Origin: an uncultured Candidatus Peribacteria bacterium
GTDB taxonomy: Bacteria; Patescibacteriota; Gracilibacteria; UBA1369; GWF2-33-10
NCBI GenBank assembly: GCA_964511025.1
Contig: CAZEDK010000002.1
Span: 1 to 59,147, forward strand
Length of the DNA: 59,147 bases
Reading direction: 5' to 3'
Position 1 is the stretch's first letter. The number at the start of each line of letters is the position of its first letter. The notes beneath the pieces were generated by a model, which was not told the origin of the DNA, ran no database searches, and saw nothing but the letters and a program-made list of their open reading frames with translations. Below, in pieces: positions 16,645 through 39,053 of the stretch. The position numbers were made by a program, and so were the translations under genes.

Positions 16645-17604
16645 TCATTGAATAATCTTACCAATCTTATAAACAGGCTTATCCTGTGACTCATGATAAA
16701 TTCTTACTAAAATCTCTGCTAATATTCCAAAAGAAATAAATAATAATGAAGAAATAATAAACAACATTGTTAACATAACTAAAGGTAAAAGATTTATACC
16801 TGGAATATTAATAATAAAACGCTCATATAATGTTTTCATACCGACAATCAAGGCAGCAATTAAATTAATTATACCAAAACCACCGAACAGATAGATAGGT
16901 TTCTGAGAAAAATCAGCTAAAAATTTAATAGTGATCAAATCAAGCAGAACTTTGACGATCCGAATTAATCCATATTTTGACTTGCCTTTTTTACGAGGAT
17001 GATGTGAAACTGGTATTTCGGTAATCTTTGCACCTTCCCAATAAGTATAAATTGGAATAAACCTATGCATTTCACCGTATAATTTTATATTTTTTACAAT
17101 TTCCTTTTTATAGGCCTTTAGTGAACATCCATAATCCCCTAATTTAACGCCACTTATTAAAGAAATCAATTTATTAGCAATAAAAGATGGAAATCTTCTT
17201 GTAAGAAACGAATCACATCTATTTATTCTACACCCACTCACTACGTCATAACCTTCGTTTAGCTTTTCCAATAATCTTGGTATATCTTCTGGGTCGTTTT
17301 GTAAATCTCCATCCATCGGGACAATCACCTCGCCATTTGCATAATCAAATCCAGCAGATACAGCTGCAGTTTGACCATAATTTTTTTTAAGTACAATAAT
17401 CTTAATATTAGGATAATTATTTTTATTGATTTGTAACATCTGAAGTGTATTATCCTTGCTACCATCATCTATAAAAATTACTTCATAATCAGCTTGTTTA
17501 AAATTAATAGACCGCATTGCACGATCTATTTTATTACAGATTTCTGTGATATTCCCTTCTTCATTATAAACAGGAATTATTATACTTAGTTTAAGTTCCG
17601 ACAT
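16645..17604 (-). CDS. GtrB/ArnC-like GT2, polyprenyl-phosphate glycosyltransferase with two C-terminal TM helices (copy 1)
   Basis: 319 aa. Motifs: LSIIIPVYNEEGNI, IFIDDGSKDNT, PMDGDLQNDPEDIP, followed by two hydrophobic helices at the C-terminus. Confidence 0.8.
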   Translation of the reverse strand: MSELKLSIIIPVYNEEGNITEICNKIDRAMRSINFKQADYEVIFIDDGSKDNTLQMLQINKNNYPNIKIIVLKKNYGQTAAVSAGFDYANGEVIVPMDGDLQNDPEDIPRLLEKLNEGYDVVSGCRINRCDSFLTRRFPSFIANKLISLISGVKLGDYGCSLKAYKKEIVKNIKLYGEMHRFIPIYTYWEGAKITEIPVSHHPRKKGKSKYGLIRIVKVLLDLITIKFLADFSQKPIYLFGGFGIINLIAALIVGMKTLYERFIINIPGINLLPLVMLTMLFIISSLLFISFGILAEILVRIYHESQDKPVYKIGKIIQ

Positions 17605-19507
17605 GGTTTTCCCACCATAAGCCTAAAATAAGAATATTCCATAGTTCTTTCCGTAAATCAGCTTTATTTTGCAAGTGAAGATCGTAAAGTTGTCTCAGGA
17701 ATTTCATATCAAATAACCCTGTTTTGCTTAATTTACCATTATACAAAATATCATACATCATGGTCTTTAGTATTCCTTTTAACCATTTCCCCGTAGGAAT
17801 GCCAAATCCTTTTTTTCCCCTCTTTAATATATTTAAAGGTAAAACCCCTTTTAATATTTTTTTGTATAGGTACTTTCTGGTTAACCGTCGCATCTTAAAC
17901 GAAACTGGTAATTGATTAACAAAATTAGCATAATCTTTATCAAGAAAAGGAGAACGAACCTCCAAGGAATTCATCATACTTGCTCTGTCAACCTTCGTCA
18001 GGATAGAATCATGCATGTAAAATGTAAGAAAGTTCAAAACCACGCTGTCAATATAATGTAATTCCTTGTGGTTACATTTTTGTTTTAATACATCTTCCAA
18101 AAGTTGCTGAAAAGTCAGACCTCCTGCCCATGGAAAAATACTTTTGATTTCAGTGACAGAAAACGTACTCATCCATAATTGATTTCTTAATCCATAATTA
18201 CCATAAGTTTCAGGATTAAAACCTTTTAAAAAATGTCTTAACTTAAATCCTAAGCTCATATTCAAATTCGAGTTTATTAAAAGAGACGAAGATGCTATAA
18301 AATAAATCAGTTTTTGAAGACATTGACTTCTTTCAATCAAAAGACTAAAGGGGATTGCCACAAAAGGATCGTATCCGGCAAATAGTTCATCATTTCCATC
18401 TCCACCTAAAGCTACAGTAATCGTTTGTCTAGCAAATTTGGACAACAAATATGTTGGAATAATAGAAGCATCAGCAAATGGTTCATCAAGATTCTCAATA
18501 ATTGTGGGAAGAAACTGAACCAACGAGTCTATATCCAGGATTTCTTCATAATGGTCTGTACCATACAAAGCAGCAAGCCGTCTCGCATATTGTGATTCAT
18601 CATAATCTGGCTCATTAAAGCCTATACAAAAAGTCCTTAATTGAGAAATACCACATTGAGCTAATAATGCCAACATACCCCCAGAATCCAAGCCTCCACT
18701 TAAAAATATGCCCAATGGTACATCACTAATAAGGCGCTTTCTAATTGCTCTGACAAGCAATATTTTTAATTGTTCCTGTGCTTCAGGTTCTGAAATAGAT
18801 AACTTCGGTGTAAATGTAATATTAAAAAACTTAACTGGAATAATGGAATTCTGAGTAATAGGTTTATTTACATCAATATAAAAATATGCGCCGGCTGGAA
18901 GTTTTAATACAGATTTATATATACTATGTGGGGTTGGAATATAATCAAAAGCTAGATATTTTTGAAGGGATAGTTGCTGTATTTCTGCACGAAAATTTGG
19001 ATACCTAATAATTGCCTTAATTTCGGAGCTAAATATTAGTTGTTTATTCTGCCATGCATAAAAAAGTGGTTTTTTACCAAAGGGGTCTCTTGCCAAAAGT
19101 AACTTTTTTCTTATGGCATCGTAAAGAGCAAACGCAAACATCCCATCTAACTTACTTAATAAATCTAGGCCGTATTCCTCATAGAGATGTACAATAACTT
19201 CCGTATCTGTGTTAGAAGAAAATACGTGACCCTTTTTGATCAAATCTTCCTTTAATTCTAAGAAATTATAAATTTCTCCATTTAAAATAATACTAATACT
19301 TCCGTCTTCAGAAAAAATAGGCTGATGTCCGGCAGGGCTAGTATCAATAATACTGAGACGTCTATGAGCCAATCCGACGTTGTGATTACAATAACTCCCG
19401 GCATCATCAGGCCCACGATGTCGAATGACATCAACCGCATCTTTTAAATCCTGTTCAACGATTTTTAAAGATGTATTCTGATTAATTACACCGAATATTC
19501 CGCACAC
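17591..19507 (-). CDS. asnB: AsnB-family glutamine-dependent amidotransferase (copy 1)
   Basis: 638 aa. MCGIFG gives the N-terminal Cys nucleophile, with HRGPDD also present. The PP-loop is LSGGLDSGG. In this context it is probably a glycan amidotransferase rather than a housekeeping Asn synthase. Confidence 0.85.
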   Translation of the reverse strand: MCGIFGVINQNTSLKIVEQDLKDAVDVIRHRGPDDAGSYCNHNVGLAHRRLSIIDTSPAGHQPIFSEDGSISIILNGEIYNFLELKEDLIKKGHVFSSNTDTEVIVHLYEEYGLDLLSKLDGMFAFALYDAIRKKLLLARDPFGKKPLFYAWQNKQLIFSSEIKAIIRYPNFRAEIQQLSLQKYLAFDYIPTPHSIYKSVLKLPAGAYFYIDVNKPITQNSIIPVKFFNITFTPKLSISEPEAQEQLKILLVRAIRKRLISDVPLGIFLSGGLDSGGMLALLAQCGISQLRTFCIGFNEPDYDESQYARRLAALYGTDHYEEILDIDSLVQFLPTIIENLDEPFADASIIPTYLLSKFARQTITVALGGDGNDELFAGYDPFVAIPFSLLIERSQCLQKLIYFIASSSLLINSNLNMSLGFKLRHFLKGFNPETYGNYGLRNQLWMSTFSVTEIKSIFPWAGGLTFQQLLEDVLKQKCNHKELHYIDSVVLNFLTFYMHDSILTKVDRASMMNSLEVRSPFLDKDYANFVNQLPVSFKMRRLTRKYLYKKILKGVLPLNILKRGKKGFGIPTGKWLKGILKTMMYDILYNGKLSKTGLFDMKFLRQLYDLHLQNKADLRKELWNILILGLWWENHVGT

Positions 19508-21258
19508 AATGGTATTTTTTGGTAGAGTTTATCAACATAGTTTTCTACTTTGTGTTCATCTACATCAATTATGTCACATAACTTAAAAATCGAATATTTC
19601 CCTTCAAAAAATGTTCGGTCAAATTCATATCTTAAGCCAGTAGCTTCTTCCAGAACAGCTAAATTTAAATCCTTCTCAAATTGGATTAAAAATTTTGGTG
19701 TTGTCTTAATCAAATTTAACAGCATCGTCATTTTCCATTCAGGGAAAATGGGACTCATAAGAGAATCACAAGTATTCAGCCAAGGGACCGGTGAACGTCT
19801 CTCACATAACACATAAAGCTGAGGTACGCATCCCCAAACAAAAATGTGATCGTCATCAGTTGTATTGCTTTTTACATAACCCACAATTTCGGAGGCGGCA
19901 CGATTTTTCTCAAAAACATCACGATCAGAGTCTGCCCACAGCTTATAGTCAACCGGCTCTTTATTATTTACCAAAAAAAGTAATAGGAAAAACTTAACAT
20001 CCTTATATACACATACCACAGCAAGAAAACAAATTATTATAAACCACACTTGATTAAACGAAGATATATTCAACCATACCTTATATACACCTAATCCAGC
20101 TAATATGGAAACGGGAATTAATACAGGGATGTAATGAAAAGGCAAACACTTACCTTGTAAAACAATATTCGCAAGACACCCTATCAACCAGAAGATGGCA
20201 AAAAGTTCTACACTAAGATGAGGATATAGAAAAACACCAAAGCAACACAAAATTATCATAGAGCGACTGCTCAAATAAATATTCCTACCGTAATGCTTTG
20301 ATCTATAAAAAATTTTTCCACTCGTTACTAATCCATTAGAAACAAATTTTTCAAATCTTGTTCCTTCTACCTTATAGAGTAAAAATTGGAGAACCTTTTT
20401 TAATTTTTCATTTTTAACCCACTTATCAATTTTCCTCTCAATATCCTTAATCGTATCGGAAGGTTTCTTATAGTTAAGGGAAAGATACCCAAAAACCCCC
20501 AAATTTTCTTTAGTCAATAATCCTTTACTTTTTAAAACCACATAAAAAATTGCAAACGCGGCAAAAGTACCCATTACTGAAACTGGGAAATAAACCAACT
20601 TCCACATACTTATCATAAGGAATAACCACATAAAGAAATATTCCATCACCTGAGTAACTTTGAAAAAAAAAGCCGATAAGAACATTAAAAAAACAATTAA
20701 ACCAAGAAGATAGTTATCAGGTGTTTTTAAAAAGATTCCTATCAGAAGAAAAATAATAGCATTCACAAAATTTGTAGTCCGTTCAGATGTTTCATAGTGC
20801 ACACCTAAAAAAGGATTACTTGAGAAAAGAAGATAAATAGATGGTACAAAAAAAGAAAGAACTGCCTGATCATGAAGCAAAATTTTTAAAGCAAAAAAAA
20901 GAATGATTGCCGTGAAGCAATTTAACACGAGAAACATTTTTCTGGATATAGTTTCAGGATTACGAATACCAAATAATTTAAACCAAAAAATAAACAGAAA
21001 CATTGAACCTATACGAGCGCAACCCATAAGAATATTTAATTGTTGATTTAATCTTACCCCTCTCTTTCTGAAAGCAGCCCAATAAGCATGCCATCCTGCA
21101 TCCCTATGACACACTAAATTCATAAAAGGACGATTTGCAATCCAATAAAGTATAAAAACAGCTAAAAAACAACTATAAATAAGCATAGTAATTTTATATT
21201 TAGAAGAACGTTTCAAAAAATGTCTTAGCAGTACTCCATAATTGATTAACACGTACAC
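19486..21258 (-). CDS. Polytopic membrane protein, GT-C-like candidate (partner of GtrB-like copy 1)
   Basis: 590 aa. About 12 or more hydrophobic helices are followed by a soluble C-terminal domain of about 150 aa. An alternative start at Met25 (21186) would remove the 59-nt overlap with the upstream gene. Confidence 0.6.
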   Translation of the reverse strand: MYVLINYGVLLRHFLKRSSKYKITMLIYSCFLAVFILYWIANRPFMNLVCHRDAGWHAYWAAFRKRGVRLNQQLNILMGCARIGSMFLFIFWFKLFGIRNPETISRKMFLVLNCFTAIILFFALKILLHDQAVLSFFVPSIYLLFSSNPFLGVHYETSERTTNFVNAIIFLLIGIFLKTPDNYLLGLIVFLMFLSAFFFKVTQVMEYFFMWLFLMISMWKLVYFPVSVMGTFAAFAIFYVVLKSKGLLTKENLGVFGYLSLNYKKPSDTIKDIERKIDKWVKNEKLKKVLQFLLYKVEGTRFEKFVSNGLVTSGKIFYRSKHYGRNIYLSSRSMIILCCFGVFLYPHLSVELFAIFWLIGCLANIVLQGKCLPFHYIPVLIPVSILAGLGVYKVWLNISSFNQVWFIIICFLAVVCVYKDVKFFLLLFLVNNKEPVDYKLWADSDRDVFEKNRAASEIVGYVKSNTTDDDHIFVWGCVPQLYVLCERRSPVPWLNTCDSLMSPIFPEWKMTMLLNLIKTTPKFLIQFEKDLNLAVLEEATGLRYEFDRTFFEGKYSIFKLCDIIDVDEHKVENYVDKLYQKIPLCAEYSV

Positions 21259-22657
21259 GCTTCAATTGGTCACAAAACTGCTTTGGTCGAAAATAAAAAT
21301 CCCGTAATGCTTTTTTTTGTAATTTCTTCAACATATCGCCACTTAGCTCCGGAGTGTTCCATATTGGCTTATTTTTTGTATAGGATATATAGCTGGAGTA
21401 TCTAAGCCAAACAGAAGTATCTATAGAGCCATCTGGTCTTATACCCGTATCAATTTCTCCCTTTGCTTTGAGTTCATTAAATAATGGCGAACCAGGATAA
21501 GGCACCAATATGCTGAACTGCGCCATATCTAAGGGAAGTCCTTTGGCAAAACGAATAGTCTGCAAAGAATCATTATAGGTTTCACCCGGTAATCCCAAAA
21601 TAAATAGACCAGAAACCTTTATTTCTGTGACTCTCTTTACTATCTTAATAGCTTCCTCTATTTTATCTAAGCGTGTCCCTTTTCTAACGTTATCAAGTAA
21701 ACGTTGAACACCGGACTCAATCCCGAAAGCCATATCATAACAACCAGCCGATTCCATAATCTTTACAAGTTCTGCATCAATAAAACGTACATGCGCTTCA
21801 CAACCCCACTTGAAATCCAGATTACGTCTTTTAATCTCAGAGCAAATATCAATAACCCTCTTTTTGTTACTTATAAAAAGCGAATCCATAATGAAGATAT
21901 AATCAGCTTTATATTGTTTTACTAAGAGTTCCATCTCATCAACAACTTTTATTACATCATTTTGCCTCTGTCTATTTGAATTATGGACAACACAGAATGT
22001 GCAGCGATGAGGACAACCACGCGAGGTAAACATGTGCTTACCAATGGTGTTTTTCTTACCAGAATAAGGAAGATTACTTATTGAGGGAATATTATAGAAT
22101 TTTTGATTAACAAGGTCTCTGGCAGGAAAAGGCAGGTCAGTTAAATTCTCAACGATACGACTTCCAGGTGTTGTAACAAACTCACCGTTTTTCAAAAAAG
22201 AAACAGATGGAATATCCGAAAAATCTCTTCTCTGATTTTCCAGATTATGCAGAATTTTTAAAAAGGTATGTTCTCCTTCGCCATGAACAACAACATCACA
22301 ACACTTATTCCTTAAATATCCCTCTGCATATGCTTCGGCATGAACATTTCCAAGAATAACTATAATATGGGGTAGATTACTTTTTAACCACTTCCCCAAA
22401 TCATATAAAATCGCCCCGTTAGATGTGAATGAAGTAAAACCAATAACATCTGCTTGGGATTCCACCATTCTGTGCTTAAGCTCATTGACAGATAATCTTT
22501 CTACATACGCATCAATTACCGAAACATTATACCCGGCATTCCTTGCTATAGCGGCAACGTAAAGTATACCCAGAGGTTCAAAAGGGGTGATTAAATTGGC
22601 GCCTGCTCCTAACAGAGCTTCCAAATCATCAGGAGGATTGACCAACAAGACATTCAT
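21200..22657 (-). CDS. Class B (B12-binding domain) radical SAM enzyme
   Basis: 485 aa. The N-terminal region is VLLVNPP...LGILYVAAIARNAGY...VIGFTS, followed by FTSRGCPHRCTFCVV (CX3CX2C). Confidence 0.85.
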   Translation of the reverse strand: MNVLLVNPPDDLEALLGAGANLITPFEPLGILYVAAIARNAGYNVSVIDAYVERLSVNELKHRMVESQADVIGFTSFTSNGAILYDLGKWLKSNLPHIIVILGNVHAEAYAEGYLRNKCCDVVVHGEGEHTFLKILHNLENQRRDFSDIPSVSFLKNGEFVTTPGSRIVENLTDLPFPARDLVNQKFYNIPSISNLPYSGKKNTIGKHMFTSRGCPHRCTFCVVHNSNRQRQNDVIKVVDEMELLVKQYKADYIFIMDSLFISNKKRVIDICSEIKRRNLDFKWGCEAHVRFIDAELVKIMESAGCYDMAFGIESGVQRLLDNVRKGTRLDKIEEAIKIVKRVTEIKVSGLFILGLPGETYNDSLQTIRFAKGLPLDMAQFSILVPYPGSPLFNELKAKGEIDTGIRPDGSIDTSVWLRYSSYISYTKNKPIWNTPELSGDMLKKLQKKALRDFYFRPKQFCDQLKRVRVNQLWSTAKTFFETFF

Positions 22658-22660
22658 TAC

Positions 22661-23386
22661 TTATTTTTCTTTGATGCACGAAACCACAATTCTAACTGGG
22701 AATAGTAGAGAAGGAACAAATTTAATCTTTTCAATTGAAAAGATATCACGAACTATATTTTTTGCATAATCCAAATCAAAGCTATGCAAATGCCATTCTT
22801 CCGTCATATCCTTTGTAAATTTATATTTGCTAATCAAATTAATCATCTTATCGAGACAAGATAAATGCATCAATGTTTTCATTGAATTGATAAACCTTTC
22901 GTTAGGAACAGAAAAAGCAAAAAGCCCCTTTTCTTTTAAAAGACGGTAAGCTTCGTAACATATAGCCTTCGGATCCTTTACGTGTTCTAGAACTTCTGAA
23001 CAATAAATTTTATCAAACGTTTCGGATTTAAAAGGAGTTGTTTCACCATAACTTTGAATAAAATTGCTCTGAACATTATATCTCTTGGATTTTGCTATAT
23101 TAAGTAAGTCAATTGACAAATCAAGTCCAAAAATATAACCCTTGTCAAAAACTTCCATCAAATTTCCCGCACCGCAACCAAGTTCAAGAATTTTATCGTT
23201 TGGATTCACATTTAACAGCGTTAAAATTGCATTGATACGTAATTTCTCAATAATCTTTATAAGAAAAAAGGCATTCTTATGATATGTATCAGGATTATAT
23301 CTCTTTACCATACTATCGTTCCACAAACGAAATTCTTTATCGTTAATCATCACTCTATTCTCAATATCAGATACAAAAAAGCGCAT
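22661..23386 (-). CDS. Class I SAM-dependent methyltransferase
   Basis: 241 aa. Motif I is ILELGCGAGNLME, followed by GLDLS and IYCSEVLEHV. Confidence 0.8.
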   Translation of the reverse strand: MRFFVSDIENRVMINDKEFRLWNDSMVKRYNPDTYHKNAFFLIKIIEKLRINAILTLLNVNPNDKILELGCGAGNLMEVFDKGYIFGLDLSIDLLNIAKSKRYNVQSNFIQSYGETTPFKSETFDKIYCSEVLEHVKDPKAICYEAYRLLKEKGLFAFSVPNERFINSMKTLMHLSCLDKMINLISKYKFTKDMTEEWHLHSFDLDYAKNIVRDIFSIEKIKFVPSLLFPVRIVVSCIKEK

Positions 23387-23396
23387 GCCATCGCTC

Positions 23397-25043
23397 TTAA
23401 AGATTACCGTGTGGATAATTTAAATAATCTTCTCTACCAGATTTTAGAAAACGCCTCAATCCCTGAACGAAGCTTGACTTTTCAAACTCATTTCTATTTT
23501 TAAATAACGGATGAAATCGCATTGTTGCCTTTTCGTCTCTATAATATCCATGTTCTAAAAGATCGAGTTGTATAGGGCGCAAAATAAATATTCCATAAGC
23601 ATAACGGCGGGCAAGTTCTTTTGCTTCTTCTGACATTGGTTGTATATCTTGTAGTGCTTGAATGCATTCAAGGTATGCCTCTCTAGAATCAAAATCATGT
23701 GTAAAACCAAGCCTGTCGTATCGGCCTGTACCCGCAGTAAGGGTATTTATACCCATTGCAGATGCCTCAATTCCAATAGTTCCGCGTACAGTAAGACAAT
23801 AATCCATTGTTTCAAAAAGACTAAATGTATTAATATCACTCTCAGGAGGAATAACTTTAATATGTTCAGGCAATTGACCTAGTGTTTCATAAACTGCCTT
23901 TAACTCTACATGCTCTCCTCTATAATTATCCCGCCTTGCCTTAACCACGTTTGCAGGATGAACTTTTATAATCCAGTTAAGGTTTTTATTATTAGCAGCA
24001 ACCTTAAGCACATTTATAAACCAGTCGTAGTAATCTTCAAACAGATCTTCACCCCAGAAGAAAGTGGCATCCCAGAACATATGGGGAAATATTACGGCAG
24101 TTTTTTTACTTAAATCCAATTGTAACTTAGATTCAATATCTTTTTTAGAATAAACTACTTTATTAAACTGAGTTCCAACCTCACTAAACCAGTCCCCACT
24201 TTTATAAGTTCTTTCCAGCTCATTACAGAGATCTATCCATAAACCATCATTCCATTCTATATTCTTCACATAGTTCAAAGATTCCGCTGATAAAGAGTGA
24301 GGATGAACATTGCTTGTTTTTAGACTAGAATATCGTTTAAGTATTTCCCAGCCACTTTTATGTGCAGCGCAACGTTGAACCACCGGAATCTCGTATCTTA
24401 GACATATATCAAAAAGCTGTCCTCCTGGAGTGTAACCACGATCGTTTACACACACCAAGTCAGGAGCAACTTTTCTTAATATAATTTCTACCACAATTGC
24501 AGCTCTTAGTGAATAAGCAAGCTGCTCAATAAACAATGCCCTTATTTTATCGTCTCTCAAATTAAAATTGCTTTGTCTGGTTAACCTCATAATGGACGAA
24601 GCCGCATGTTTACCAACTTGAATACCATTTCTCGTCAATTCCAAAACATCTTCTAAGGTTACATTTTTAGCTAAATTTTCAGCTTCGGCTTTAATTCGCT
24701 TTAAGGATAGGCTTTTGAAATAATCTTCGTAATAATATAAATTTTTAATTCCAAAGATTTTAAAGATTTTTTCAACAAAAGGGTCATATGCTGTCAGTAT
24801 GTATGCTTCATACCCAAGGGTCTCTAATGCCTTTGCGTAAATTGCCTCAGTTCCAGCCCCATACCAGCCTATGCTAGCAATTAGAACCTTATTATTAGCT
24901 GAATTAACAGATAACCTTTCACATATAAACGAAGGCACATTCTGTTTGAGATGTAAAAAAGCGGCCTTTGCAGGTGCATATCTTGATAAATAACTTCCTA
25001 CTAATTTTTTCGCAGTAACCTTTAAATAAAAATTCAAATCCAC
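23397..25043 (-). CDS. Protein of uncertain function, resembling capsule-biosynthesis (KpsC/KpsS/LpsZ-type) proteins; possible keto-acid sugar transferase
   Basis: 548 aa. AVIFPHMFWDATFFWGEDLF...NWIIKVHPAN resembles the conserved core of the Capsule_synth family as I remember it. The call is weak. Confidence 0.35.
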   Translation of the reverse strand: MDLNFYLKVTAKKLVGSYLSRYAPAKAAFLHLKQNVPSFICERLSVNSANNKVLIASIGWYGAGTEAIYAKALETLGYEAYILTAYDPFVEKIFKIFGIKNLYYYEDYFKSLSLKRIKAEAENLAKNVTLEDVLELTRNGIQVGKHAASSIMRLTRQSNFNLRDDKIRALFIEQLAYSLRAAIVVEIILRKVAPDLVCVNDRGYTPGGQLFDICLRYEIPVVQRCAAHKSGWEILKRYSSLKTSNVHPHSLSAESLNYVKNIEWNDGLWIDLCNELERTYKSGDWFSEVGTQFNKVVYSKKDIESKLQLDLSKKTAVIFPHMFWDATFFWGEDLFEDYYDWFINVLKVAANNKNLNWIIKVHPANVVKARRDNYRGEHVELKAVYETLGQLPEHIKVIPPESDINTFSLFETMDYCLTVRGTIGIEASAMGINTLTAGTGRYDRLGFTHDFDSREAYLECIQALQDIQPMSEEAKELARRYAYGIFILRPIQLDLLEHGYYRDEKATMRFHPLFKNRNEFEKSSFVQGLRRFLKSGREDYLNYPHGNL

Positions 25044-25084
25044 GATTATTAATATTTTAAAGTTAATTTCATGCCTAGCAACTA

Positions 25085-26071: not shown

Positions 26072-26107
26072 AAAAATCTCAATGTGGATAAGTTAATTCA
26101 AAAAAAC

Positions 26108-28290: not shown

Positions 28291-28302
28291 TATAAAAACC
28301 TA

Positions 28303-28977
28303 TTACGTGGTTTTAAGCTTCATATAAACTTCTGCAAACTCGAAATCAAAAGGAGTATTAATGTCGATAGCCTCTTCTTCCGAAACGATTACAGGATATA
28401 ATATATCTCCCAAAACTGATTTTTTCTGTCGTAAGATATTTGTTTTCGTGCCATATATCGTACTGCTTTCCTTATACAACGGTATCCTTTCTTGGCGTCT
28501 TCTGGATTGTCCAGGAAACAAAAATTCAAACTTGCCATCTATTATTTTCCCATAACAGCTCCTGGACTCTATCACCCCAATAACCGAATCAGCCTCCGTA
28601 GTTTTAAAAACTTCTACACACCTATCAATTAGTTGTGGCGTTCGAAAAGGAGACGTGGGTTCTAATGTAAGAACGATATCTGGCTCAAAACCATACATGC
28701 GCTTTAATTCATCAAGAACGTGAAGTAATGCCCATTCTGTTGGCGTTTCATCAGTTGCCAGTTCTGCAGGTCGTACAATGACTTCTGTATTAAATTCCTT
28801 GGCAACTTGAGCAATTTGTGGATGATCAGTAGAAACAACTAACTTATTTATAGATATAGACTTCTGTGCAGATTCTATTGTATATGCTATTAACGGTTTA
28901 CCGCAAAGCTCTCTAATATTTTTAAGAGGAACAGACTTAGAACCCCCGCGGGCAGGAATAACTGCTAAAACTACCAA
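28303..28977 (-). CDS. neuA: CMP-nonulosonic acid synthetase (acylneuraminate cytidylyltransferase)
   Basis: 224 aa. Motif: AVIPARGGSKSVPLKNIRELCGKPLIAYTI. Confidence 0.85.
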   Translation of the reverse strand: MVVLAVIPARGGSKSVPLKNIRELCGKPLIAYTIESAQKSISINKLVVSTDHPQIAQVAKEFNTEVIVRPAELATDETPTEWALLHVLDELKRMYGFEPDIVLTLEPTSPFRTPQLIDRCVEVFKTTEADSVIGVIESRSCYGKIIDGKFEFLFPGQSRRRQERIPLYKESSTIYGTKTNILRQKKSVLGDILYPVIVSEEEAIDINTPFDFEFAEVYMKLKTT

Positions 28978-29043
28978 TTATTAATCCTCAAATAATGGCT
29001 GACAAATACTACAAAATTAGAGATATAAACAATATTTCTTTAA

Positions 29044-30493: not shown

Positions 30494-31948
30494 TTAGTCC
30501 ATACCCTGTATGAAAAACTTTTCTAAATGCATAAAATAAGACATATGCTTAAACCTTAAATAAGCTATTGGCTGATACATTTTTAACAACATTCTCAACA
30601 TTCTTTTAGATGCCCTATGAATACCTGAAGGAAACGCAAGATAGCTTGTACAGTTTATGCTCTCCAAAATTTTATTTTCCCTGTCACTCATCCAGTGATT
30701 ATAGTATTTACCCCAACCAGTTGATTCCAATTGTGCCCATCTCTCAAGACAAGTTGGTTGAGTAAACCCATACTCAACAGCTTTTTGAAACATAGGGGTG
30801 CCTGGAAAAGGAGTGAAAATATTGAATGGGAACCATGCATTCTTATTTTTCTTGTATAATTCTACTGCTAAATTTACTGTTTTTTCTATTCCTTTGATTG
30901 TTTCCCCTGGGAAACCAATAATCATGTTATATTTTACTGCAAAAGTTCTTCCTACGAGTTTTTCATTGGCTAAAAGTATCTCCTCAATCTTGAATTTTTT
31001 ATCTATCATATCTAAAATCTCAGGATTAGCGGACTCAATCCCTATACTAAATTCAACACACCCACTGTCTTCAATTTTATCAAGAAGCTTCGAAGTCATT
31101 TTATTTACTGTTTCAACACGAACCCCCTGTGTCCCCCAATAAATTTTTAAATTAGCCTCTTTCAAAGCATCTACAAATCGTTCTACACGTTTTAAATCCA
31201 CCATAAAATTATCATCAACCAAATAGAACGTGCTAATGCCATATTTCCCTTTTAGAAACACCATGTTTTCAATAATCTTTTCAACAGTTATCGCCCTCCA
31301 TAGTCTTTTAGAAGTAATTGGAGTCGAACAAAATCCACAATTGTATGGACATCCTCGGCTGGTCAGAATATCAAGCGACGGTAGGTTATCTACAGAAAGT
31401 GAAGAATATTTTGGAATATCAAGAAGGCGATATGGAAACATGGGAAGAACGTTGAGGTCGTTGATAAGTGGTGCAGGTAGGTTGATTTTTATTTCTCCGT
31501 TATCCTTATATCCAATACCACCTATCTCTGCTAAATTCTTTTTTTCGGCAAATGCTTTAACTAATGCAAAAAAGGTCTCATCGCCTTCATTGATAACAAT
31601 AACATCAACCAAAGGTGATTCAAGAGTTTGTTTTGGCACTAGAGTTGGGTGTGGTCCCCCCCAAACAAGAGGGACATCTGGATTTATTAACCTTACTGCA
31701 TTTGCAACCTCTAAAGCACTATTAATCATTTTCCCTGTAAAACATCTTATTCCAACACAGAGTGTATTACAATCTATCGCATTTTTTAAGGTTTGTTGCC
31801 AATTACCGTCAATTCTTAAGTCTACTATCTTAATAGAAAATCCTGCCTTTTCTGGCAATGAAGCAATAGCCAAAAGACCATTCGGAACTCTGATTGCGAT
31901 TTCGTCAAACCGATTTCCTCCAGGTTGAACTAATACTATATCTGCCAT
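30494..31948 (-). CDS. Class B (B12-binding domain) radical SAM enzyme
   Basis: 484 aa. The N-terminal region is IVLVQPG...LLAIASL...VWGGPHPT, followed by LTSRGCPYNCGFCST (CX3CX2C). Confidence 0.85.
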   Translation of the reverse strand: MADIVLVQPGGNRFDEIAIRVPNGLLAIASLPEKAGFSIKIVDLRIDGNWQQTLKNAIDCNTLCVGIRCFTGKMINSALEVANAVRLINPDVPLVWGGPHPTLVPKQTLESPLVDVIVINEGDETFFALVKAFAEKKNLAEIGGIGYKDNGEIKINLPAPLINDLNVLPMFPYRLLDIPKYSSLSVDNLPSLDILTSRGCPYNCGFCSTPITSKRLWRAITVEKIIENMVFLKGKYGISTFYLVDDNFMVDLKRVERFVDALKEANLKIYWGTQGVRVETVNKMTSKLLDKIEDSGCVEFSIGIESANPEILDMIDKKFKIEEILLANEKLVGRTFAVKYNMIIGFPGETIKGIEKTVNLAVELYKKNKNAWFPFNIFTPFPGTPMFQKAVEYGFTQPTCLERWAQLESTGWGKYYNHWMSDRENKILESINCTSYLAFPSGIHRASKRMLRMLLKMYQPIAYLRFKHMSYFMHLEKFFIQGMD

Positions 31949-32095: not shown

Positions 32096-33532
32096 TTATC
32101 TTGTATATTCTCCTCTAAGGAGGTTAAATAAGCCTAACCCCATTTTAAATTTCTGTAAAAACTCTGTTAAAGTTCTGATTTTTTTAAACTCATTAAACAT
32201 ATAACTCAATCTAAAATAAAACCTTTTTACAGATTTATCTCGCAATCTTATTAATTCCTCTTTCGATATCAGATTCTCTATTACATAAGGAATCTCAAAG
32301 GATGGAATGGGATTCATCGTAAAATCTAACCAATAATCTTCTGGGATAATTTTTTGTTTCAAAGCATTCTCGTAAGCTTCTGTACCGGGATATGGAATTG
32401 TTATAGAGAACTCAGCATAATCGGTATCCAGCTCAAGGGCAAATTCAATAGTTTTATGAGCATCTTCAGGCGTTTCTCCCGGTAATCCAAACATAAAATA
32501 CGTTAGTATAACAAACCTATATTTTTTAGTATGCTTAATTGCTTCCCTTACCTGATCTGTAGTAATATTCTTCTTTATTAATCTCAAAACCTTATCACTA
32601 CCTGATTCTACACCATAATGAATACGATAACAGCCTGCCTTTTTCAACTCAATTAAAACATCTTCTTTTGCCCGGTCAACCCTATCACGAATAGCCCAAT
32701 CTAAATCCAGTTTCTTATCTATGATACCTTGACAAATATCCTTTGTACGCCGATGGTTCCAGTTAAATGTATCATCATATATCTCCACTTCTTTTATTCC
32801 TAAGCTGTTAATAATCTCAAATTCTTTAATAACACTCTCTGCACTTCTCATAACAGGTTTTTGAAAATTTAGTTTACAATAAACACATCTAAAAGGACAT
32901 CCTCTACTGGTAATCATAGAAGTCACAAATCTATTATGGCTTAACACCGAGTAATACCTTTCCATCGGTAACAAGGTTCTATCAGGAATAGGTAAACTAT
33001 CCAGATCTTCGCATACATATGGTATATAATTTCCATATTCTACATTACGGAAATACACCCCCGGTATTTCTTTATTCTCATGGTTCTCTATGGAAAGATA
33101 ATTGAGAAGATTTACCATTGGAATTTCTCCATCACCAAGTATAATAGAGTCTATACAATCAAACGTAAGGGCTTCTTTTGGGAAAATATTGATGTGCGGA
33201 CCACCCATTGTAATATGACAGCCAGGATACCTCCCTTTAAGTTTCTTTGCTATTTCTAATGATTGGTACCAAAAATCTGTCCATGCACTAACACCAATAA
33301 CATCATATGAATCCTTTATAAATTCTAATATGTTCCCTCGATGGACATCGTCAAGCTGACAGTCAAGAATTTCAACATCATGGTCCGTCATCTCCTTAAT
33401 GGCAGTTGCAACATACAATAAACCAATAGGTGGTTTAAAACCAATTCCCTCATCCGTGTTATATATACTGAAAAGGGTTTTAATACAATCCCTATTTGAT
33501 GGTTGAATTAATAGTACTTTAAACCGTCGCAT
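32096..33532 (-). CDS. Class B (B12-binding domain) radical SAM enzyme
   Basis: 478 aa. The N-terminal region is VLLIQPS...IGLLYVATAIKE...VIGVSA...TMGGPHIN, followed by ITSRGCPFRCVYCKL (CX3CX2C). Confidence 0.85.
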   Translation of the reverse strand: MRRFKVLLIQPSNRDCIKTLFSIYNTDEGIGFKPPIGLLYVATAIKEMTDHDVEILDCQLDDVHRGNILEFIKDSYDVIGVSAWTDFWYQSLEIAKKLKGRYPGCHITMGGPHINIFPKEALTFDCIDSIILGDGEIPMVNLLNYLSIENHENKEIPGVYFRNVEYGNYIPYVCEDLDSLPIPDRTLLPMERYYSVLSHNRFVTSMITSRGCPFRCVYCKLNFQKPVMRSAESVIKEFEIINSLGIKEVEIYDDTFNWNHRRTKDICQGIIDKKLDLDWAIRDRVDRAKEDVLIELKKAGCYRIHYGVESGSDKVLRLIKKNITTDQVREAIKHTKKYRFVILTYFMFGLPGETPEDAHKTIEFALELDTDYAEFSITIPYPGTEAYENALKQKIIPEDYWLDFTMNPIPSFEIPYVIENLISKEELIRLRDKSVKRFYFRLSYMFNEFKKIRTLTEFLQKFKMGLGLFNLLRGEYTR

Positions 33533-34520: not shown

Positions 34521-34545
34521 TGTGTTATTCCTATGCTATACAACC

Positions 34546-37062
34546 TTAATTTGTTTGCCTTTGTATAAACGGAATATCCCATTTATACTTCTTAGCTATA
34601 AAAAATCCGAAAAAAAATAAAATCCATACCCCTATCGAAACATAAATTCCTAAATGGAAGGGGGTAGTATCAAAATACAAGTTAACCATATACTGACCAG
34701 AAGGCAATTTAACCCCTTTAAAAATACCATTCGCCTTTATAACTTCAAAAGCTTCTTTTTCTGTATTATCGAATGTTGGAATTAAAGCCCAATTCCATAT
34801 ATTTGCTTTTATATCAGTATGATTTCCTCCATCTGCTTTTGCTTTCCAGAAAGGATGCCATGCGTCTGCTATAACTAAAATATTCTCCTTATCACCGTAA
34901 TAATCAAAAACCAAAGAACCATAAGAGAATTTCTTCAAAGATATTCTGGAATGCCCTACACCTACTGGCATAAAATTACAATCTTTTTCATAAACGTAAG
35001 CAGTTCCCTGAACTGGATTTTCAGGCCATTGATTTTCCTTCAGTGTCTCTATTTTTTCTGCCAAATAATAATATGGCCAGGCGGAAAGATTTTTGTAAAC
35101 ATAAAGTTGTTTGTCTTTGAAAGCAAGTGATAAATAATCTGGAGTAATTGTAAGCTCGCGGTGAGTATAATAATAAGAGACTGCCCCCATATTAAGAAGT
35201 TCAGAGGATATTAAAGGGCCTCCACGCAACTCTCTCAAATCATTTATTCTTTTTATTCCATCACCATTAAAAACATTATAAGTAAATTCTGCTACATTTT
35301 TTTGACTGTAAGATTTATTATGTGAAATAGTCATAGTGGGTTGTTCAAAAAAGCTGGATATATATTCAAAATGTCCACCACCGTCCACTTCTTCCCAATT
35401 CTTCTTAAAAAATTCCAAGTTTTTTTCACTATCCGGCGTTTTTTCAAAAAACGCGTAAAAACGGTCTGTGGGTTGAAAATCCGGCAGAGTTTTGCCTCGC
35501 CATATTATTTCCCTCTCATTTAAAGGCTGTATCCCCCATGAAAACATAATGGCGTTAAGGATTAATACACCAGCAATAATCTTATTGTATTTAGATAAGA
35601 CTGATGAACCAAAACCCTTCTTTATAAATAGAAATATTAAAAATCCGCTTGTCATATAGAATATTAGAGAATACCAATGCATTGTCTCCTGTAAACGTTT
35701 AACATTAAATACCATACAATGCGCAACCAGTTCCTTAGAACTGATACTCTTCATAAAAATAGACACGAGAGCCGGCAGCAATTCAGGCACCAACATTGCA
35801 AGGATACTGAAAATTACCAGGACAAAATAAATAGTAAAAAGAATAATGGCTATTATTTTTTGAATTAATGCTCCACAACGAATTCTTATTTTAAAATCTT
35901 GTTTTGAAACTTCAGATAGAAATATCCCTAAAAGGCCAATTTGAAGGGATTGAGAAGCAGGAAACGATTCAATAAAATTGGCGTAAGAAACTGTAATTAA
36001 ATTCTCAAAAGGGGGAAAAGTTCTATATAAAAATTCATAAATATAAGTAATAATAATAAGCCATTTCGTTGCAAATTCCCAGAAGCTGGTTGACTTACGA
36101 AAAAGGAAGAATAGAAAGACAAGTGGAAAAATTATATAAGAGCTGAAGTGGCTCTCTGGCGGCAACAACTCACTTCTTACTAACAATGTTTGTTGGGAAG
36201 GGTACCATCCCATACAAATAAAATTAATTACATGATGGAACATCTGTACAACATTAACGATGCCCGCCTTTTCATATATATGGTCTCGAGTATATCCTAT
36301 GAGGTGTTTTTCTAAAAAAAAGGCATAGCAAATCCAAAACCCAAGTAAAACAGTTATTAGTGCTCCTAATGAATGTAAAAAAACGCTTTTGAGTAATACC
36401 CTCCTTAAAGAGTCTTTGTAATATATGTAGTAAATAATACAAAACAAAATACCTACAAAATTAAGTGTGGTAAAACAAACAACATTCCCACAAAACAATA
36501 CGAACCATAAGAGAAAAGAACATTGAAAAAGATGTAAAACCTTAGGTTTTTTAAAGTAATCATATAACAGCATTAAAAAGAGGGGTGTCGCAACAGAGAG
36601 CGCTATCGGGTTTCTAGTAGAAAAGGTTGATTGTAGTGAACCAAAAACAACAAGTGGGGCAAGAAAGCAGGTAATGTTGCCAAGCTTAGGCGCAACACGC
36701 TTTAAGAAATAATATTGAGATATTCCAGCAAATATAAGAAGTAAAAGCACTGAAGAGTTGTAAGCAAATACCTCGTGACCAATAATCTTTTGCCACAAAG
36801 TATAAATTGACCATGCATGAACCAATCCCGGTTCACCAAAAAATGTTGAAATACCAAATCCATGATCAGGTCTCCAGCCATTACCAATAGCATTTCCATG
36901 TGCATAGAAGAAAGCAACAATTCCATCCTCTATGCAAAGGAAGTTTGCGCCTAAGAACAATTTGTAATAACCTAAAAAAATAATTATAACAATGCAAAAG
37001 ATTGAAATAATATCTTTATTATCAAATACCAACTTTCTTAACCCACACTTTACACTGCTCAT
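34546..37062 (-). CDS. Very large polytopic membrane protein with a C-terminal soluble domain and a terminal TM; YfhO-like / GT-C candidate (partner of GtrB-like copy 2)
   Basis: 838 aa. There are many TM helices over about 520 aa, then a hydrophilic domain of about 270 aa, then a final hydrophobic helix (IYVSIGVWILFFFGFFIA). The size and architecture recall YfhO-type proteins, but the family is not verified. Confidence 0.55.
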   Translation of the reverse strand: MSSVKCGLRKLVFDNKDIISIFCIVIIIFLGYYKLFLGANFLCIEDGIVAFFYAHGNAIGNGWRPDHGFGISTFFGEPGLVHAWSIYTLWQKIIGHEVFAYNSSVLLLLIFAGISQYYFLKRVAPKLGNITCFLAPLVVFGSLQSTFSTRNPIALSVATPLFLMLLYDYFKKPKVLHLFQCSFLLWFVLFCGNVVCFTTLNFVGILFCIIYYIYYKDSLRRVLLKSVFLHSLGALITVLLGFWICYAFFLEKHLIGYTRDHIYEKAGIVNVVQMFHHVINFICMGWYPSQQTLLVRSELLPPESHFSSYIIFPLVFLFFLFRKSTSFWEFATKWLIIITYIYEFLYRTFPPFENLITVSYANFIESFPASQSLQIGLLGIFLSEVSKQDFKIRIRCGALIQKIIAIILFTIYFVLVIFSILAMLVPELLPALVSIFMKSISSKELVAHCMVFNVKRLQETMHWYSLIFYMTSGFLIFLFIKKGFGSSVLSKYNKIIAGVLILNAIMFSWGIQPLNEREIIWRGKTLPDFQPTDRFYAFFEKTPDSEKNLEFFKKNWEEVDGGGHFEYISSFFEQPTMTISHNKSYSQKNVAEFTYNVFNGDGIKRINDLRELRGGPLISSELLNMGAVSYYYTHRELTITPDYLSLAFKDKQLYVYKNLSAWPYYYLAEKIETLKENQWPENPVQGTAYVYEKDCNFMPVGVGHSRISLKKFSYGSLVFDYYGDKENILVIADAWHPFWKAKADGGNHTDIKANIWNWALIPTFDNTEKEAFEVIKANGIFKGVKLPSGQYMVNLYFDTTPFHLGIYVSIGVWILFFFGFFIAKKYKWDIPFIQRQTN

Positions 37063-37127: not shown

Positions 37128-39053
37128 TCACAAACCAACCGATACTTGCGGAAATTTTTCAAGCCATTTCCCAAAAACCATAAGGTTGAAAAGGATTCTG
37201 TAATTGTTCCTTTTACCTAGCAGATGCTGTTCTTTAAGATGCTCCATGTACAAAGGATCAACCAATCCATTATTCCATATCTTCGACAAGAGTATTTCGT
37301 CCATTTTGCTTCTCAAAACTGTTTTTAACCATCTGGCAAGGGGAAACGTAAATCCCTGCTTCTTTTGGTTATAAATCATTTTTTGAAAACCACGTTGATA
37401 GGCGACATATTTTAGAATTCTCTTGAGTTCACCTTTACTCGTTTTAAAGTAATCCGGAAGCTTATTTGCAAATTCAATGAGAGAAACAGAAAGAAAGGGA
37501 GACCTTACTTCTAGACTGTTTTGCATTGCCGAACGGTCAGTATGCAGACACACGAACTCTGGCAAAAAAAATTTTTGATAGAAATATAAAAACATTTGTG
37601 TCCGTGATCTACCCTCCATTCCTGAAAGCCCTCTTCTAAAATCTTCAAAAAGAGTCCCTTCTTCTCCCTTACGAGAAAAGAAGCCCGAATCCTGCCATGG
37701 GCAAAGCATTTGTAATTCTTCAGGAGAAATAGCTCCCAACCATAAAGGGAATCTTGTTGTCTCGTGTGCAGGAAAACCTTGTAAAAGTGATAATGCTCTA
37801 AACTGTAAACCCAAATACTTATCATTTCCAGGAAGAAGGTGTTTTACTAACTTGTTTACGCCCGATACAAAAAACTCAGGAATACTGTTAAAAAACCTTT
37901 CTTTTTCTAAAGCCAGGAAACTAACATATCCTGCAAATAACTCATCCGCCCCATCTCCAGCAATGGCTACTGTAATATCGGATCGGCAGGATTTTGCCAG
38001 AAAATAGGAATTTACAAAACCAGGGTCTCCATGCGGCTCGTCAAGAAAACTAAAAAAAACATCTATAGAATCTTGTATAGATTTAAAATTCATCAAATAG
38101 GCATTTCTTGTTTTTATCTTCAACTGGTCTGCAACAATTTTAGCCTTATCCCATTCATCAAAATCACTCTCACCCATTGAAACACTGAATGACGATATTT
38201 CTTGGTTAAATTTATGACATGAATCAAGCACTAGAGAACTATCAATCCCGCCGCTCAGAAAGACTCCGTAAGGAACATCTGATCTCATTGAAATTTCACA
38301 AGAACGGTCGAATAATCGCTGAAACTCTAAAGAAGCATCTTCAAAACTTATATTTAACAGGTTATTACCAGGAATTGAATCCCAATAGCGTTGTAGAGAT
38401 ACGCTTCCATTGTCTATTTCCAAATAACAACCGGGGAGCAACTTTTTCACGCCTACCAGAGGAGTTGTATCCCATATATAATATGAATTGGTTAAAAATT
38501 TCAGGAAAGTGTTTAGGTCAATCTGCCATTTAAAACATTCCAAAGCTAACAAGGCGCGTAGTTCAGAGGCATAAACTATACCTTCATCATATACATAATA
38601 ATAAAGTGGCTTTTGCCCAAGATGATCCCGAAAAAGATACTGTTTCTCTGAAATTGTATCATGAATTGCCACCGCAAACATCCCATCAAACTTTAAAAAA
38701 GCATCCTTACCCCAAAGCATAAAAGATGCAAGAAGAACCTCTGTATCCGAGGCAGTTCGAAATTTAAAGTTTTCATTTTCAAGCTGATGTCTTAATTCAA
38801 GATAATTGTATATTTCACCGTTAAAAGTAACGATATATCTTCCTTTTTCATCAATAAAAGGTTGATTAGCCTCTTCGCTAAGATCTATTATCTTTAGCCG
38901 CCGATGCCCCATATAAACATTATTAGAATACCACTCTCCCTGAGAATCTGGTCCTCTATGAACCATTGTTGAAAGCGCTCTCCTTGCATAGAGCATTTCC
39001 TCTTTTGTCAGATGAGACCCTTTATTTTTTATCCATCCAAAAATAGCGCACAT
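37128..39053 (-). CDS. asnB: AsnB-family glutamine-dependent amidotransferase (copy 2)
   Basis: 641 aa. Motifs: MCAIFG (Cys nucleophile), HRGPDS, and the PP-loop LSGGIDSS. Confidence 0.85.
   Translation of the reverse strand: MCAIFGWIKNKGSHLTKEEMLYARRALSTMVHRGPDSQGEWYSNNVYMGHRRLKIIDLSEEANQPFIDEKGRYIVTFNGEIYNYLELRHQLENENFKFRTASDTEVLLASFMLWGKDAFLKFDGMFAVAIHDTISEKQYLFRDHLGQKPLYYYVYDEGIVYASELRALLALECFKWQIDLNTFLKFLTNSYYIWDTTPLVGVKKLLPGCYLEIDNGSVSLQRYWDSIPGNNLLNISFEDASLEFQRLFDRSCEISMRSDVPYGVFLSGGIDSSLVLDSCHKFNQEISSFSVSMGESDFDEWDKAKIVADQLKIKTRNAYLMNFKSIQDSIDVFFSFLDEPHGDPGFVNSYFLAKSCRSDITVAIAGDGADELFAGYVSFLALEKERFFNSIPEFFVSGVNKLVKHLLPGNDKYLGLQFRALSLLQGFPAHETTRFPLWLGAISPEELQMLCPWQDSGFFSRKGEEGTLFEDFRRGLSGMEGRSRTQMFLYFYQKFFLPEFVCLHTDRSAMQNSLEVRSPFLSVSLIEFANKLPDYFKTSKGELKRILKYVAYQRGFQKMIYNQKKQGFTFPLARWLKTVLRSKMDEILLSKIWNNGLVDPLYMEHLKEQHLLGKRNNYRILFNLMVFGKWLEKFPQVSVGL

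Follow-up and report, generated by a model that had tools for sequence, protein, structure and literature searches.

Can a glutamine-dependent amidotransferase and cobalamin-binding radical S-adenosylmethionine (SAM) enzymes work on a sugar that is later handed over outside the cytoplasm? The question is raised by a 59,147-nt stretch of DNA from an uncultured Candidatus Peribacteria bacterium (contig CAZEDK010000002.1; the whole stretch is hereafter the window), in which two sets of genes each encode an AsnB-like amidotransferase, a large membrane protein (M1 or M2) and a family 2 glycosyltransferase (GT2), next to one or two class B radical SAM enzymes. A preliminary description had taken these sets for a duplicated module and for two parallel decoration systems outside the cytoplasm. 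We give an even chance to the reading that they are two extracytoplasmic glycosylation modules of the Gtr/Arn/CsbB-YfhO type, in which the donor sugar would be amidated and radical-SAM modified in the cytoplasm; a third such module is probably present in the locus.

Enzymes of the two modules

The coordinates and domain calls already given for the module genes were all confirmed from the open reading frame (ORF) list and Pfam, with every gene on the minus strand. In order of transcription they are as follows.

37128..39053, minus strand: module 2, AsnB-like glutamine-dependent amidotransferase, 641 aa (Pfam Asn_synthase 5e-59 plus GATase_6/7)
34546..37062, minus strand: module 2, M2, glycosyltransferase of predicted GT-C fold, 838 aa
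33558..34520, minus strand: module 2, predicted polyprenyl-phosphate GT2 of the ArnC/GtrB class, 320 aa (PF00535 2.5e-29)
32096..33532, minus strand: module 2a, class B radical SAM enzyme, 478 aa (B12-binding plus Radical_SAM; CPFRCVYC)
30494..31948, minus strand: module 2b, class B radical SAM enzyme, 484 aa (Pfam; CPYNCGFC)
21200..22657, minus strand: module 1, class B radical SAM enzyme, 485 aa (B12-binding 1.8e-21, Radical_SAM 1.8e-17; CPHRCTFC)
19486..21186 (start corrected from 21258), minus strand: module 1, M1, glycosyltransferase of predicted GT-C fold, 566 aa
17591..19507, minus strand: module 1, AsnB-like glutamine-dependent amidotransferase, 638 aa (Asn_synthase 1e-83, GATase_7 1e-44)
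16645..17604, minus strand: module 1, predicted polyprenyl-phosphate GT2 of the ArnC/GtrB class, 319 aa (PF00535 3e-34)

Of the overlaps of stop and start codons reported in module 1, two are real: M1 and AsnB share 22 nt, the AsnB start being fixed by its Met-Cys N-terminus, and the AsnB stop and GT2 start overlap by 14 nt, which suggests translational coupling. Another, a 59-nt overlap of M1 with the radical SAM gene, is probably an artefact of the start, because the homologues of M1 all begin at Met25 of the 590-aa ORF in the homologue alignment; the M1 gene is probably 19486-21186, encoding 566 aa.

The best NCBIfam match of both GT2s is ArnC (NF007986; 1.2e-65 over the full length for module 1, 2e-51 for module 2), followed by PgfS and AglJ, and their identities to E. 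coli ArnC are 35% (module 1) and 36% (module 2). Both end in two membrane helices in a Kyte-Doolittle scan, as do the GT2s that adjoin M1 and M2 homologues. The earlier assignment to the GtrB/ArnC type agrees with these matches and helix pairs; both enzymes belong by sequence to the ArnC/GtrB/PgfS class, predicted to load a sugar on polyprenyl phosphate.

Both AsnB proteins carry the GATase_7 and Asn_synthase domains, begin with MCGIFG or MCAIFG, have an SGGLDS or SGGIDS PP-loop and pass the cut-off of TIGR01536. Neither copy reaches the AsnB equivalog NF006949 (312 and 221 bits against a cut-off of 499), and the best-scoring model is the exopolysaccharide (EPS)-type amidotransferase TIGR03108, whose cut-off is not reached either. 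Among solved structures, 7ylz, a secondary-metabolite hydroxyamidotransferase, is the nearest to the module 1 AsnB (3.7e-52), ahead of E. coli AsnB; the window proteins exceed the latter in length by about 85 residues. Nine of nine AsnB proteins linked to GT-C genes retain the Met-Cys start; these proteins score 204-408 bits among themselves against 132-199 bits to E. coli AsnB and do not group by GT-C family. The three class B radical SAM enzymes match PF02310 and PF04055 with the CxxxCxxC core motif present; none of them reaches an NCBIfam equivalog cut-off.

The two AsnB genes are paralogues (32% identity, E 3e-96), and so are the two GT2 genes (39%, E 1e-69), as had been proposed. A recent tandem duplication of the module was rejected, the pairs being only 32-39% identical and each module being closer to counterparts elsewhere (77-90% and 84-91%). 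That M1 and M2 are one duplicated membrane gene was likewise rejected (BLASTP E 0.15; hhalign of the family alignments, probability 0.3), and hhalign comparisons among the families of M1, M2 and M3, a membrane protein near the left end of the window, found no relation (probabilities 0.1-0.8%). As M1 and M2 are unrelated in sequence, the term 'duplicated' fits AsnB and GT2 only, and the sequences describe two analogous modules rather than one duplicated module.

M1 and M2 both have many predicted membrane helices (Kyte-Doolittle scan), and direct scans gave no Pfam or NCBIfam match for either; neither window protein matches YfhO PF09586 or PMT_2 PF13231, the families that had been suggested for a check. 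The proposed GT-C fold was found when AlphaFold models were searched with Foldseek: the best nine PDB matches of each protein are all GT-C enzymes.

The M2 family comprises 25 homologues from a search of 5.8 billion clusters. M2 begins with a set of membrane helices, which is followed by a soluble domain, rich in beta structure and about 290 aa long, and by one more membrane helix at the C-terminus. Its model, built on the homologue alignment, has a pLDDT of 79 and a pTM of 0.83, and its top nine matches include AftD (1.9e-4), ArnT (6.4e-4, TMt 0.52), AftB, AftA and Stt3. Four of the 25 homologues match YfhO PF09586 (best 2.4e-6), which the window M2 does not match even at E up to 1; with about 840 aa, a large soluble part and a membrane helix at its C-terminus, M2 is built in a way consistent with YfhO. 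On the model and these matches, M2 is classed as a probable, far-diverged relative of YfhO with a predicted GT-C fold.

M1 has only five close homologues. Its model has a pLDDT of 67, and its top nine matches include Stt3 (2.4e-5), ArnT, PglB, DPY19, ALG12 and AftD. A full HMMER search of 1.84 billion representatives brought out a family of 13 proteins at E<1e-30, which grows to 1,311 at E<1e-3. No Pfam match, PF02366 and PF13231 included, was found for M1, the five close homologues or 10 distant relatives. In the broadened alignment A4 a near-invariant Asp29 lies in an HxDxG motif after the first membrane helix. At E 7e-4 the A4 profile matches ArnT (5ezm), in an alignment where Asp29 pairs with the PDEGRY Asp; PDB profile searches with the narrow alignments A1, A2 and A3 gave nothing useful, and ArnT was reached by A4 only. 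A second conserved motif, WGxxPQxYVL, is C-terminal. M1 is classed from its model and profile as a GT-C enzyme, remotely ArnT-like, of a family without a Pfam or NCBIfam model.

The GT-C proteins diverge much faster than their cytoplasmic neighbours. In three related loci (L024, L026, L027) M1 is 64-68% identical where the flanking enzymes are 84-91% identical, and in L010 the identity is 48% for M2 against 77-90% for AsnB, GT2 and the radical SAM enzymes. Changing acceptor specificity, or selection on an exposed domain, may account for this.

Recurrence of the modules in other lineages

The genomic contexts of homologues were retrieved and the window proteins mapped on them by tblastn. About 17 lineage-level loci were obtained, three for the M1 family and twelve for the M2 family, plus those of the M3 family. 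The arrangement of the modules is not due to chance, as each of them recurs in other organisms. The gene orders are listed below (B12rSAM, class B radical SAM gene; rSAM, radical SAM gene; MTase, methyltransferase gene; sizes denote proteins of that length).

M1 family, Brocadiales-type (window, L024, L026, L027): (nonulosonic acid genes)-548aa-MTase-B12rSAM-M1-AsnB-GT2
M1 family, Nitrospinaceae (L004, L025, L030): B12rSAM-AsnB-GT2-M1
M1 family, Lentisphaerae (L001, L028): NeuB-NeuC-epimerase-575aa-MTase-B12rSAM-MTase-GT2-M1, no AsnB
M2 family (window, L010): AsnB-M2-GT2-rSAM-rSAM, gene for gene
M2 family, Nitrospinae metagenome-assembled genome (L017): GT2-AsnB-3xB12rSAM-M2
M2 family, Nitrospinae (L019): divergently transcribed AsnB and B12rSAM; GT2 of soluble type only
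M2 family (L033): AsnB-GT2-M2, with two B12rSAM genes upstream

Genes for a GT-C protein, a membrane GT2 and a class B radical SAM enzyme thus recur, in shuffled order, in Planctomycetota, Nitrospinota and other metagenome loci. About seven of the approximately 17 lineage-level loci contain AsnB (a raw count, not an enrichment); it is never more than four genes from the GT-C gene, and every locus with AsnB also has a class B radical SAM gene. The 14-nt overlap of AsnB and GT2 is also kept in both the Brocadiales-type (window, L024) and the Nitrospinaceae (L025, L004) lineages. AsnB is a less constant companion in the M1 loci than the class B radical SAM gene, which all three M1 lineages have at most two genes upstream of the M1 homologue. 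For module 2, the L010 orthologues of AsnB (77% identity) and of the 2a and 2b radical SAM enzymes (90% and 79%) stand in the same position, and radical SAM enzymes resembling orthologues of 2a adjoin AsnB and M2 homologues in Nitrospinae (42-47% identity, 421-465 bits against at most 212 for other paralogues).

Synteny of AsnB, GT2 and GT-C genes was therefore borne out in L025, L004, L017, L019, L010, L024, L031 and L033, while the fixed triad that had been considered was not, AsnB being absent from about 10 of the approximately 17 loci. Among M2 loci it is absent from L007 (Omnitrophota), L008 and L016 (L008 being Scalindua), L011, L014, L020 and L021, and from the two Planctomycetales loci L013 and L015. 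A fixed orthologous cassette was rejected as well: the GT2 partners of the GT-C genes fall into two subclasses, an ArnC-like one and a second class, and the AsnB proteins do not follow the GT-C families. As judged from these gene contexts, GT-C family (M1, M2 or M3), GT2 subclass and AsnB combine freely, in a recurrent design with optional accessories.

The M2 genes of L007, L008, L011, L013, L014, L015, L020 and L021, whose hosts are Planctomycetes, Scalindua, Nitrospirae, Omnitrophota and a candidate phyla radiation (CPR) bacterium, are nearly always found near one to three CTP_transf_3 cytidylyltransferase paralogues. Several of these loci also encode a protein of about 640 aa with no Pfam family. 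The association of M2 with CTP_transf_3 is more regular than that with AsnB.

Proposed pathway and alternative explanations

What the analysis shows is which classes the enzymes belong to, that both membrane proteins have a predicted GT-C fold, that M1 has a conserved Asp, that the amidotransferase motifs are intact and that the linkage of the genes recurs; the following scheme would accommodate these points. At the cytoplasmic face, the membrane-anchored ArnC-like GT2 would move a sugar from a nucleotide sugar to polyprenyl phosphate. Before or after this loading, the AsnB-like glutamine-dependent enzyme would adenylate a carboxyl group of the sugar and convert it into an amide, and one or two class B radical SAM enzymes would alter the sugar, most likely by C-methylation. 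A flippase would turn the lipid-linked sugar across the membrane, and an acceptor beyond the cytoplasmic membrane, a glycan or a glycoprotein, would then receive it from M1 or M2. Since the chemistry of AsnB needs a carboxyl group, amidation of an acidic donor sugar is the simplest proposal. We infer that the substrate of AsnB and of the radical SAM enzymes is the lipid-linked sugar and not some other sugar made by the 59-kb locus; the donor sugar, the radical SAM chemistry, the flippase and the acceptor have the same standing in this scheme.

The idea of two decoration systems from which we started is supported in part: the GT2 class, the GT-C folds and the synteny of AsnB speak for it, and neither a fixed triad nor orthologous sets of components were found. 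Several observations weigh against the scheme. AsnB is lacking in most M2-family loci and in the Lentisphaerae M1 locus and is therefore not needed for GT-C function. The model of M1 is of moderate confidence, with TM-scores of 0.3-0.4, and its first loop is rich in Arg and Lys, so that its predicted topology is tentative. A scan of the window for ORFs of 70-200 aa with an ATG start and at least three membrane helices found none, and with it no dedicated flippase of the GtrA/GtcA/ArnEF type, in line with the earlier remark that no GtrA-like flippase was visible. Many other sugars belong to the locus, among them nonulosonic acid, heptose-type and deoxy sugars, and could instead be substrates of AsnB and the 12 radical SAM enzymes. 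No UDP-sugar 6-dehydrogenase of the uronic acid pathway, which would have supported a uronic acid donor, was found in Pfam and NCBIfam scans of the window.

The alternative that survives best, possible though we would not expect it to prevail, is that these are plain GT2/GT-C modules acting on an ordinary sugar, with AsnB and the radical SAM enzymes serving other steps (for example amidating or C-methylating nucleotide-activated main-chain residues, be they nonulosonic acid, heptose or uronic acid) and being neighbours through dense packing. It would account for the loci without AsnB and for the independent variation of GT2 subclass and GT-C family with respect to AsnB; AsnB-like genes are common in polysaccharide loci, as the best-scoring EPS-type model recalls, and with 12 of about 47 window genes encoding radical SAM enzymes, chance adjacency to any gene is expected. 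It fits less well with the distribution of AsnB, which in every positive locus is within four genes of the GT-C gene and in four such loci immediately adjoins the membrane GT2, although phylum and gene order vary. The conserved 14-nt overlap of AsnB and GT2 also argues against it, and so does the B12rSAM-AsnB-GT2-M1 set of Nitrospinaceae, which has no nonulosonic acid genes within 10 kb. The overlap, the linkage across phyla in shuffled order and this Nitrospinaceae set are our reasons for placing AsnB and class B radical SAM enzymes in the same sub-pathway as the GT2 and GT-C proteins.

It is improbable that M1, M2 or both are of the oligosaccharyltransferase or polymerase/ligase type, moving a whole lipid-linked glycan onto an S-layer protein or other acceptor, with the GT2s acting elsewhere. 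The best structural match of M1 is indeed yeast Stt3 (E 2.4e-5), its C-terminal domain resembles the C-terminal globular domain of AglB (3vu0, probability 0.99), and S-layer proteins of anammox bacteria are heavily O-glycosylated (PMC5088730; bioRxiv 10.1101/2020.12.03.409086). However, a membrane-anchored polyprenyl-phosphate GT2 adjoins the M1 homologue in three of three M1 lineages, the sequence-profile link of M1 is to ArnT, a monosaccharide transferase, and the M1 alignment consensus, read by eye, contains no oligosaccharyltransferase motif of the WWDxG type. M2, for its part, appears to be related to YfhO, described as a user of C55-P-sugar donors (in part in PMC5836110 and PMC8035078, in part as general knowledge).

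That the AsnB genes are ordinary asparagine synthetases placed in the locus by chance is very hard to believe: both do pass the broad TIGR01536 and keep all glutamine amidotransferase and PP-loop motifs, but there are two copies, each embedded in a glycan operon and overlapping its genes, and both stay under the NF006949 cut-off, exceed E. coli AsnB in length, score higher with other GT-C-linked AsnB proteins and have a hydroxyamidotransferase as nearest solved structure.

Amidation and radical SAM modification of the donor sugar, followed by transfer through M1 or M2, is thus the reading that we retain for the window. A wider proposal is offered tentatively, as one that may well prove wrong: that there is a widespread undescribed route in which an acidic sugar, on or just before polyprenyl phosphate, would be amidated by AsnB, C-methylated or otherwise rearranged by class B radical SAM enzymes and delivered by interchangeable GT-C proteins, the M1 family among them. 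If true, anammox planctomycetes and nitrite-oxidising Nitrospinota would by this route tune their cell surface with decorations that are charge-neutral and rich in methyl groups.

The surrounding locus and comparison with known systems

The window is a complete contig and contains about 47 substantial ORFs, all on the minus strand and tightly packed, with a G+C content of 0.31-0.38. By Pfam and NCBIfam scans it is classed as one long surface-glycan biosynthesis locus on the minus strand, with matches to a GDP-mannose dehydratase, many short-chain dehydrogenase/reductase (SDR) epimerases and dehydratases, an HddA-like GHMP kinase, nonulosonic acid genes of NeuA, NeuB and NeuC type, GT2, GT4 and GT9 transferases, a sulfotransferase, several methyltransferases, two pairs of thiamine diphosphate (ThDP) enzymes and a Wzx-like flippase. 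The 12 radical SAM genes (eight class B, three SPASM-type and one short, by Pfam) are a very high share for a glycan locus. An Rfam scan of the window found no cobalamin riboswitch and no other RNA family, and promoter and terminator scans of window 16-36 kb gave counts at or below the shuffled expectation. Farthest upstream in the cluster, a 159-aa ORF (58645-59124) gave no match to Pfam. The only flippase-like gene of the window lies 16 kb from the modules.

54632-56071, minus strand: Wzx-like flippase gene

The genes between the two modules, assigned by Pfam and NCBIfam, are as follows.

29044-30174, minus strand: SPASM radical SAM enzyme
28303-28977, minus strand: NeuA-like protein
27253-28290, minus strand: NeuB
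26108-27271, minus strand: NeuC
25085-26071, minus strand: LegB-like epimerase/dehydratase
23397-25043, minus strand: KpsS/C-like protein of 548 aa
22661-23386, minus strand: SAM methyltransferase

These genes (22661..30174) are co-conserved with module 1. L027 keeps the order NeuB-NeuC-epimerase-548aa-MTase-B12rSAM-M1, and so does the Lentisphaerae locus L001, where additional genes precede the M1 homologue; in L024 the order is NeuB-NeuC-(CBS)-NeuA-548aa-MTase-B12rSAM-M1. The 548-aa protein has only a weak Capsule_synth match of the KpsS/KpsC type, and in the Brocadiales-type and Lentisphaerae loci it always comes after the nonulosonic acid genes and before MTase-B12rSAM-M1. It is a candidate nonulosonic acid transferase.

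At the left end of the window, M3 and a soluble GT2 had been noted as a looser third pair. The genes concerned, assigned by Pfam and NCBIfam except for M3 (helix scan), are listed below.

6350-7138, minus strand: soluble GT2
4918-6321, minus strand: class B radical SAM enzyme
3420-4799, minus strand: NanM-like sugar O-methyltransferase
2453-3307, minus strand: short radical SAM enzyme
388-2463, minus strand: M3, membrane protein of 691 aa with 13 predicted helices and a C-terminal soluble domain

A third module with M3 and this GT2 is plausible from the gene contexts: L031 keeps GT2-rSAM-M3-GT4-AsnB-B12rSAM, and L032 keeps M3-rSAM-GT2. M3 has no Pfam or NCBIfam family match and no PDB match in a profile search with family alignment A3; its homologues, at 68-77% identity, occur in Candidatus Brocadiales, Planctomycetes bins and Candidatus Kuenenia stuttgartiensis. 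Taken by themselves, these homologues would point to a planctomycete of the anammox lineage (Brocadiales), or a close relative, as the source of the window. In L031 the M3 homologue (61% identity) is followed by GT4, AsnB-like and class B radical SAM genes (L031 13318-16752), and a third AsnB/radical SAM set may lie just past the left end of the window, on the M3 side (window 1-387).

The ThDP enzymes of the locus are a split transketolase pair and an E1 alpha/beta pair (window 8360-9665 and 48050-50082), and E1 pairs also adjoin M1 and M3 homologues in other phyla (L004, L025, L031). Such ThDP enzymes are able to attach two-carbon branches to keto-sugars. In window 10715-13420 the gap between the GT9 and SPASM radical SAM genes measures 2.67 kb against 650 nt in the close relative L026, the extra DNA holding a further class B radical SAM gene (11622-13100) together with 800 nt of non-coding sequence (10823-11622). 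At 13245-13321 the 5' end of the SPASM gene (10715-10792) occurs a second time, with 79-84% identity. By its sequence the region looks like the scar of a gene-cassette insertion.

Glycosylation by a GT2, a flippase and a GT-C enzyme is a general source of surface-glycan diversity, and in the known cases the sugar moved is an ordinary one, or its donor has undergone no more than a simple change, for instance deformylation or epimerisation. Should AsnB-like amidation and cobalamin-dependent radical SAM chemistry prove to be part of making the donor, cells could add a broader set of sugars on their outside than has been described, and class B radical SAM enzymes would gain a role in the cell-envelope glycobiology of anaerobes. 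M1 has been brought out here as a GT-C family that Pfam and NCBIfam do not model. The glycans of anammox S-layers reportedly are heavily methylated, contain nonulosonic acids and heptoses and are 'charge-balanced' (PMC5088730; bioRxiv 10.1101/2020.12.03.409086). The gene sets can be compared with these unusually methylated glycans; they are candidate markers for the odd surface glycans of anammox and Nitrospina-type bacteria, and they provide a testable hypothesis of donor tailoring.

Among known systems, GtrA/GtrB/GtrC (O-antigen glucosylation) and CsbB/GtcA/YfhO (glycosylation of lipoteichoic and wall teichoic acids) share with the modules a membrane GT2 that makes a polyprenyl-phosphate sugar and an adjacent GT-C enzyme, and M2 appears to be a distant relative of YfhO with the same overall build. 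Unlike them, the modules lack the small GtrA/GtcA flippase, carry AsnB-like and class B radical SAM genes and lie in a glycan locus read as that of a diderm planctomycete, and M2 stays below every Pfam threshold. In the ArnC/ArnD/ArnT (ArnE/F) system, which adds aminoarabinose to lipid A, ArnC is the best-matching characterised GT2, and M1 is remotely ArnT-like with its Asp aligned. There the lipid-linked donor is tailored before transfer, ArnD acting on the Und-P-Ara4FN donor before ArnT transfers it (arn operon annotation), as is proposed here for amidation and methylation. The tailoring enzymes differ, being a deformylase there and AsnB plus radical SAM enzymes here; the modules have no homologues of ArnA, ArnB, ArnD, ArnE or ArnF, and M1 has no match to PF02366 or PF13231.

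Three-component pentofuranose systems combine a polyprenyl phosphoribose synthase, a MATE flippase and a GT136 GT-C enzyme with an auxiliary epimerase that diversifies the donor (PMC11127046). They resemble the present case in placing a GT-C module with donor-diversifying auxiliaries inside an O-antigen-type locus, and their GT-C enzyme founded a new family. They differ in that their donor synthase is a phosphoribosyltransferase where the modules have a GT2, in the auxiliary chemistry, and in the flippase, since the window has no MATE flippase other than the Wzx-like gene at 54632-56071.

In moenomycin synthesis, MoeF5 (AsnB-like) and MoeK5 (a B12 radical SAM C-methylase) reportedly act on the lipid-linked first sugar, a finding attributed to Ostash et al. 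2009. The likeness, matched by description, is in the same pair of enzymes: AsnB-like amidation of a uronic acid (MoeF5/MoeH5) and class B radical SAM C-methylation (MoeK5), on a lipid-linked sugar. MoeH5, which is AsnB-like, amidates the carboxyl of galacturonic acid in this phosphoglycolipid (PMC8778134). In contrast to the modules, moenomycin belongs to an antibiotic pathway of Streptomyces, is built on a phosphoglycerate lipid and involves neither a GT-C enzyme nor a transfer step outside the cytoplasm. WbpS of P. aeruginosa O6 and WbtH of Francisella are AsnB homologues in O-antigen loci, implicated in converting a sugar carboxyl to an amide, and are comparable as AsnB-like amidotransferases encoded in a surface-glycan locus; we know of no link between them and a polyprenyl-phosphate GT2/GT-C pair or a class B radical SAM enzyme. 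Set against these systems, the modules are best read as a new elaboration of the known three-component glycosylation and not as a new kind of system, with AsnB and class B radical SAM enzymes as optional accessories and with interchangeable GT-C families.

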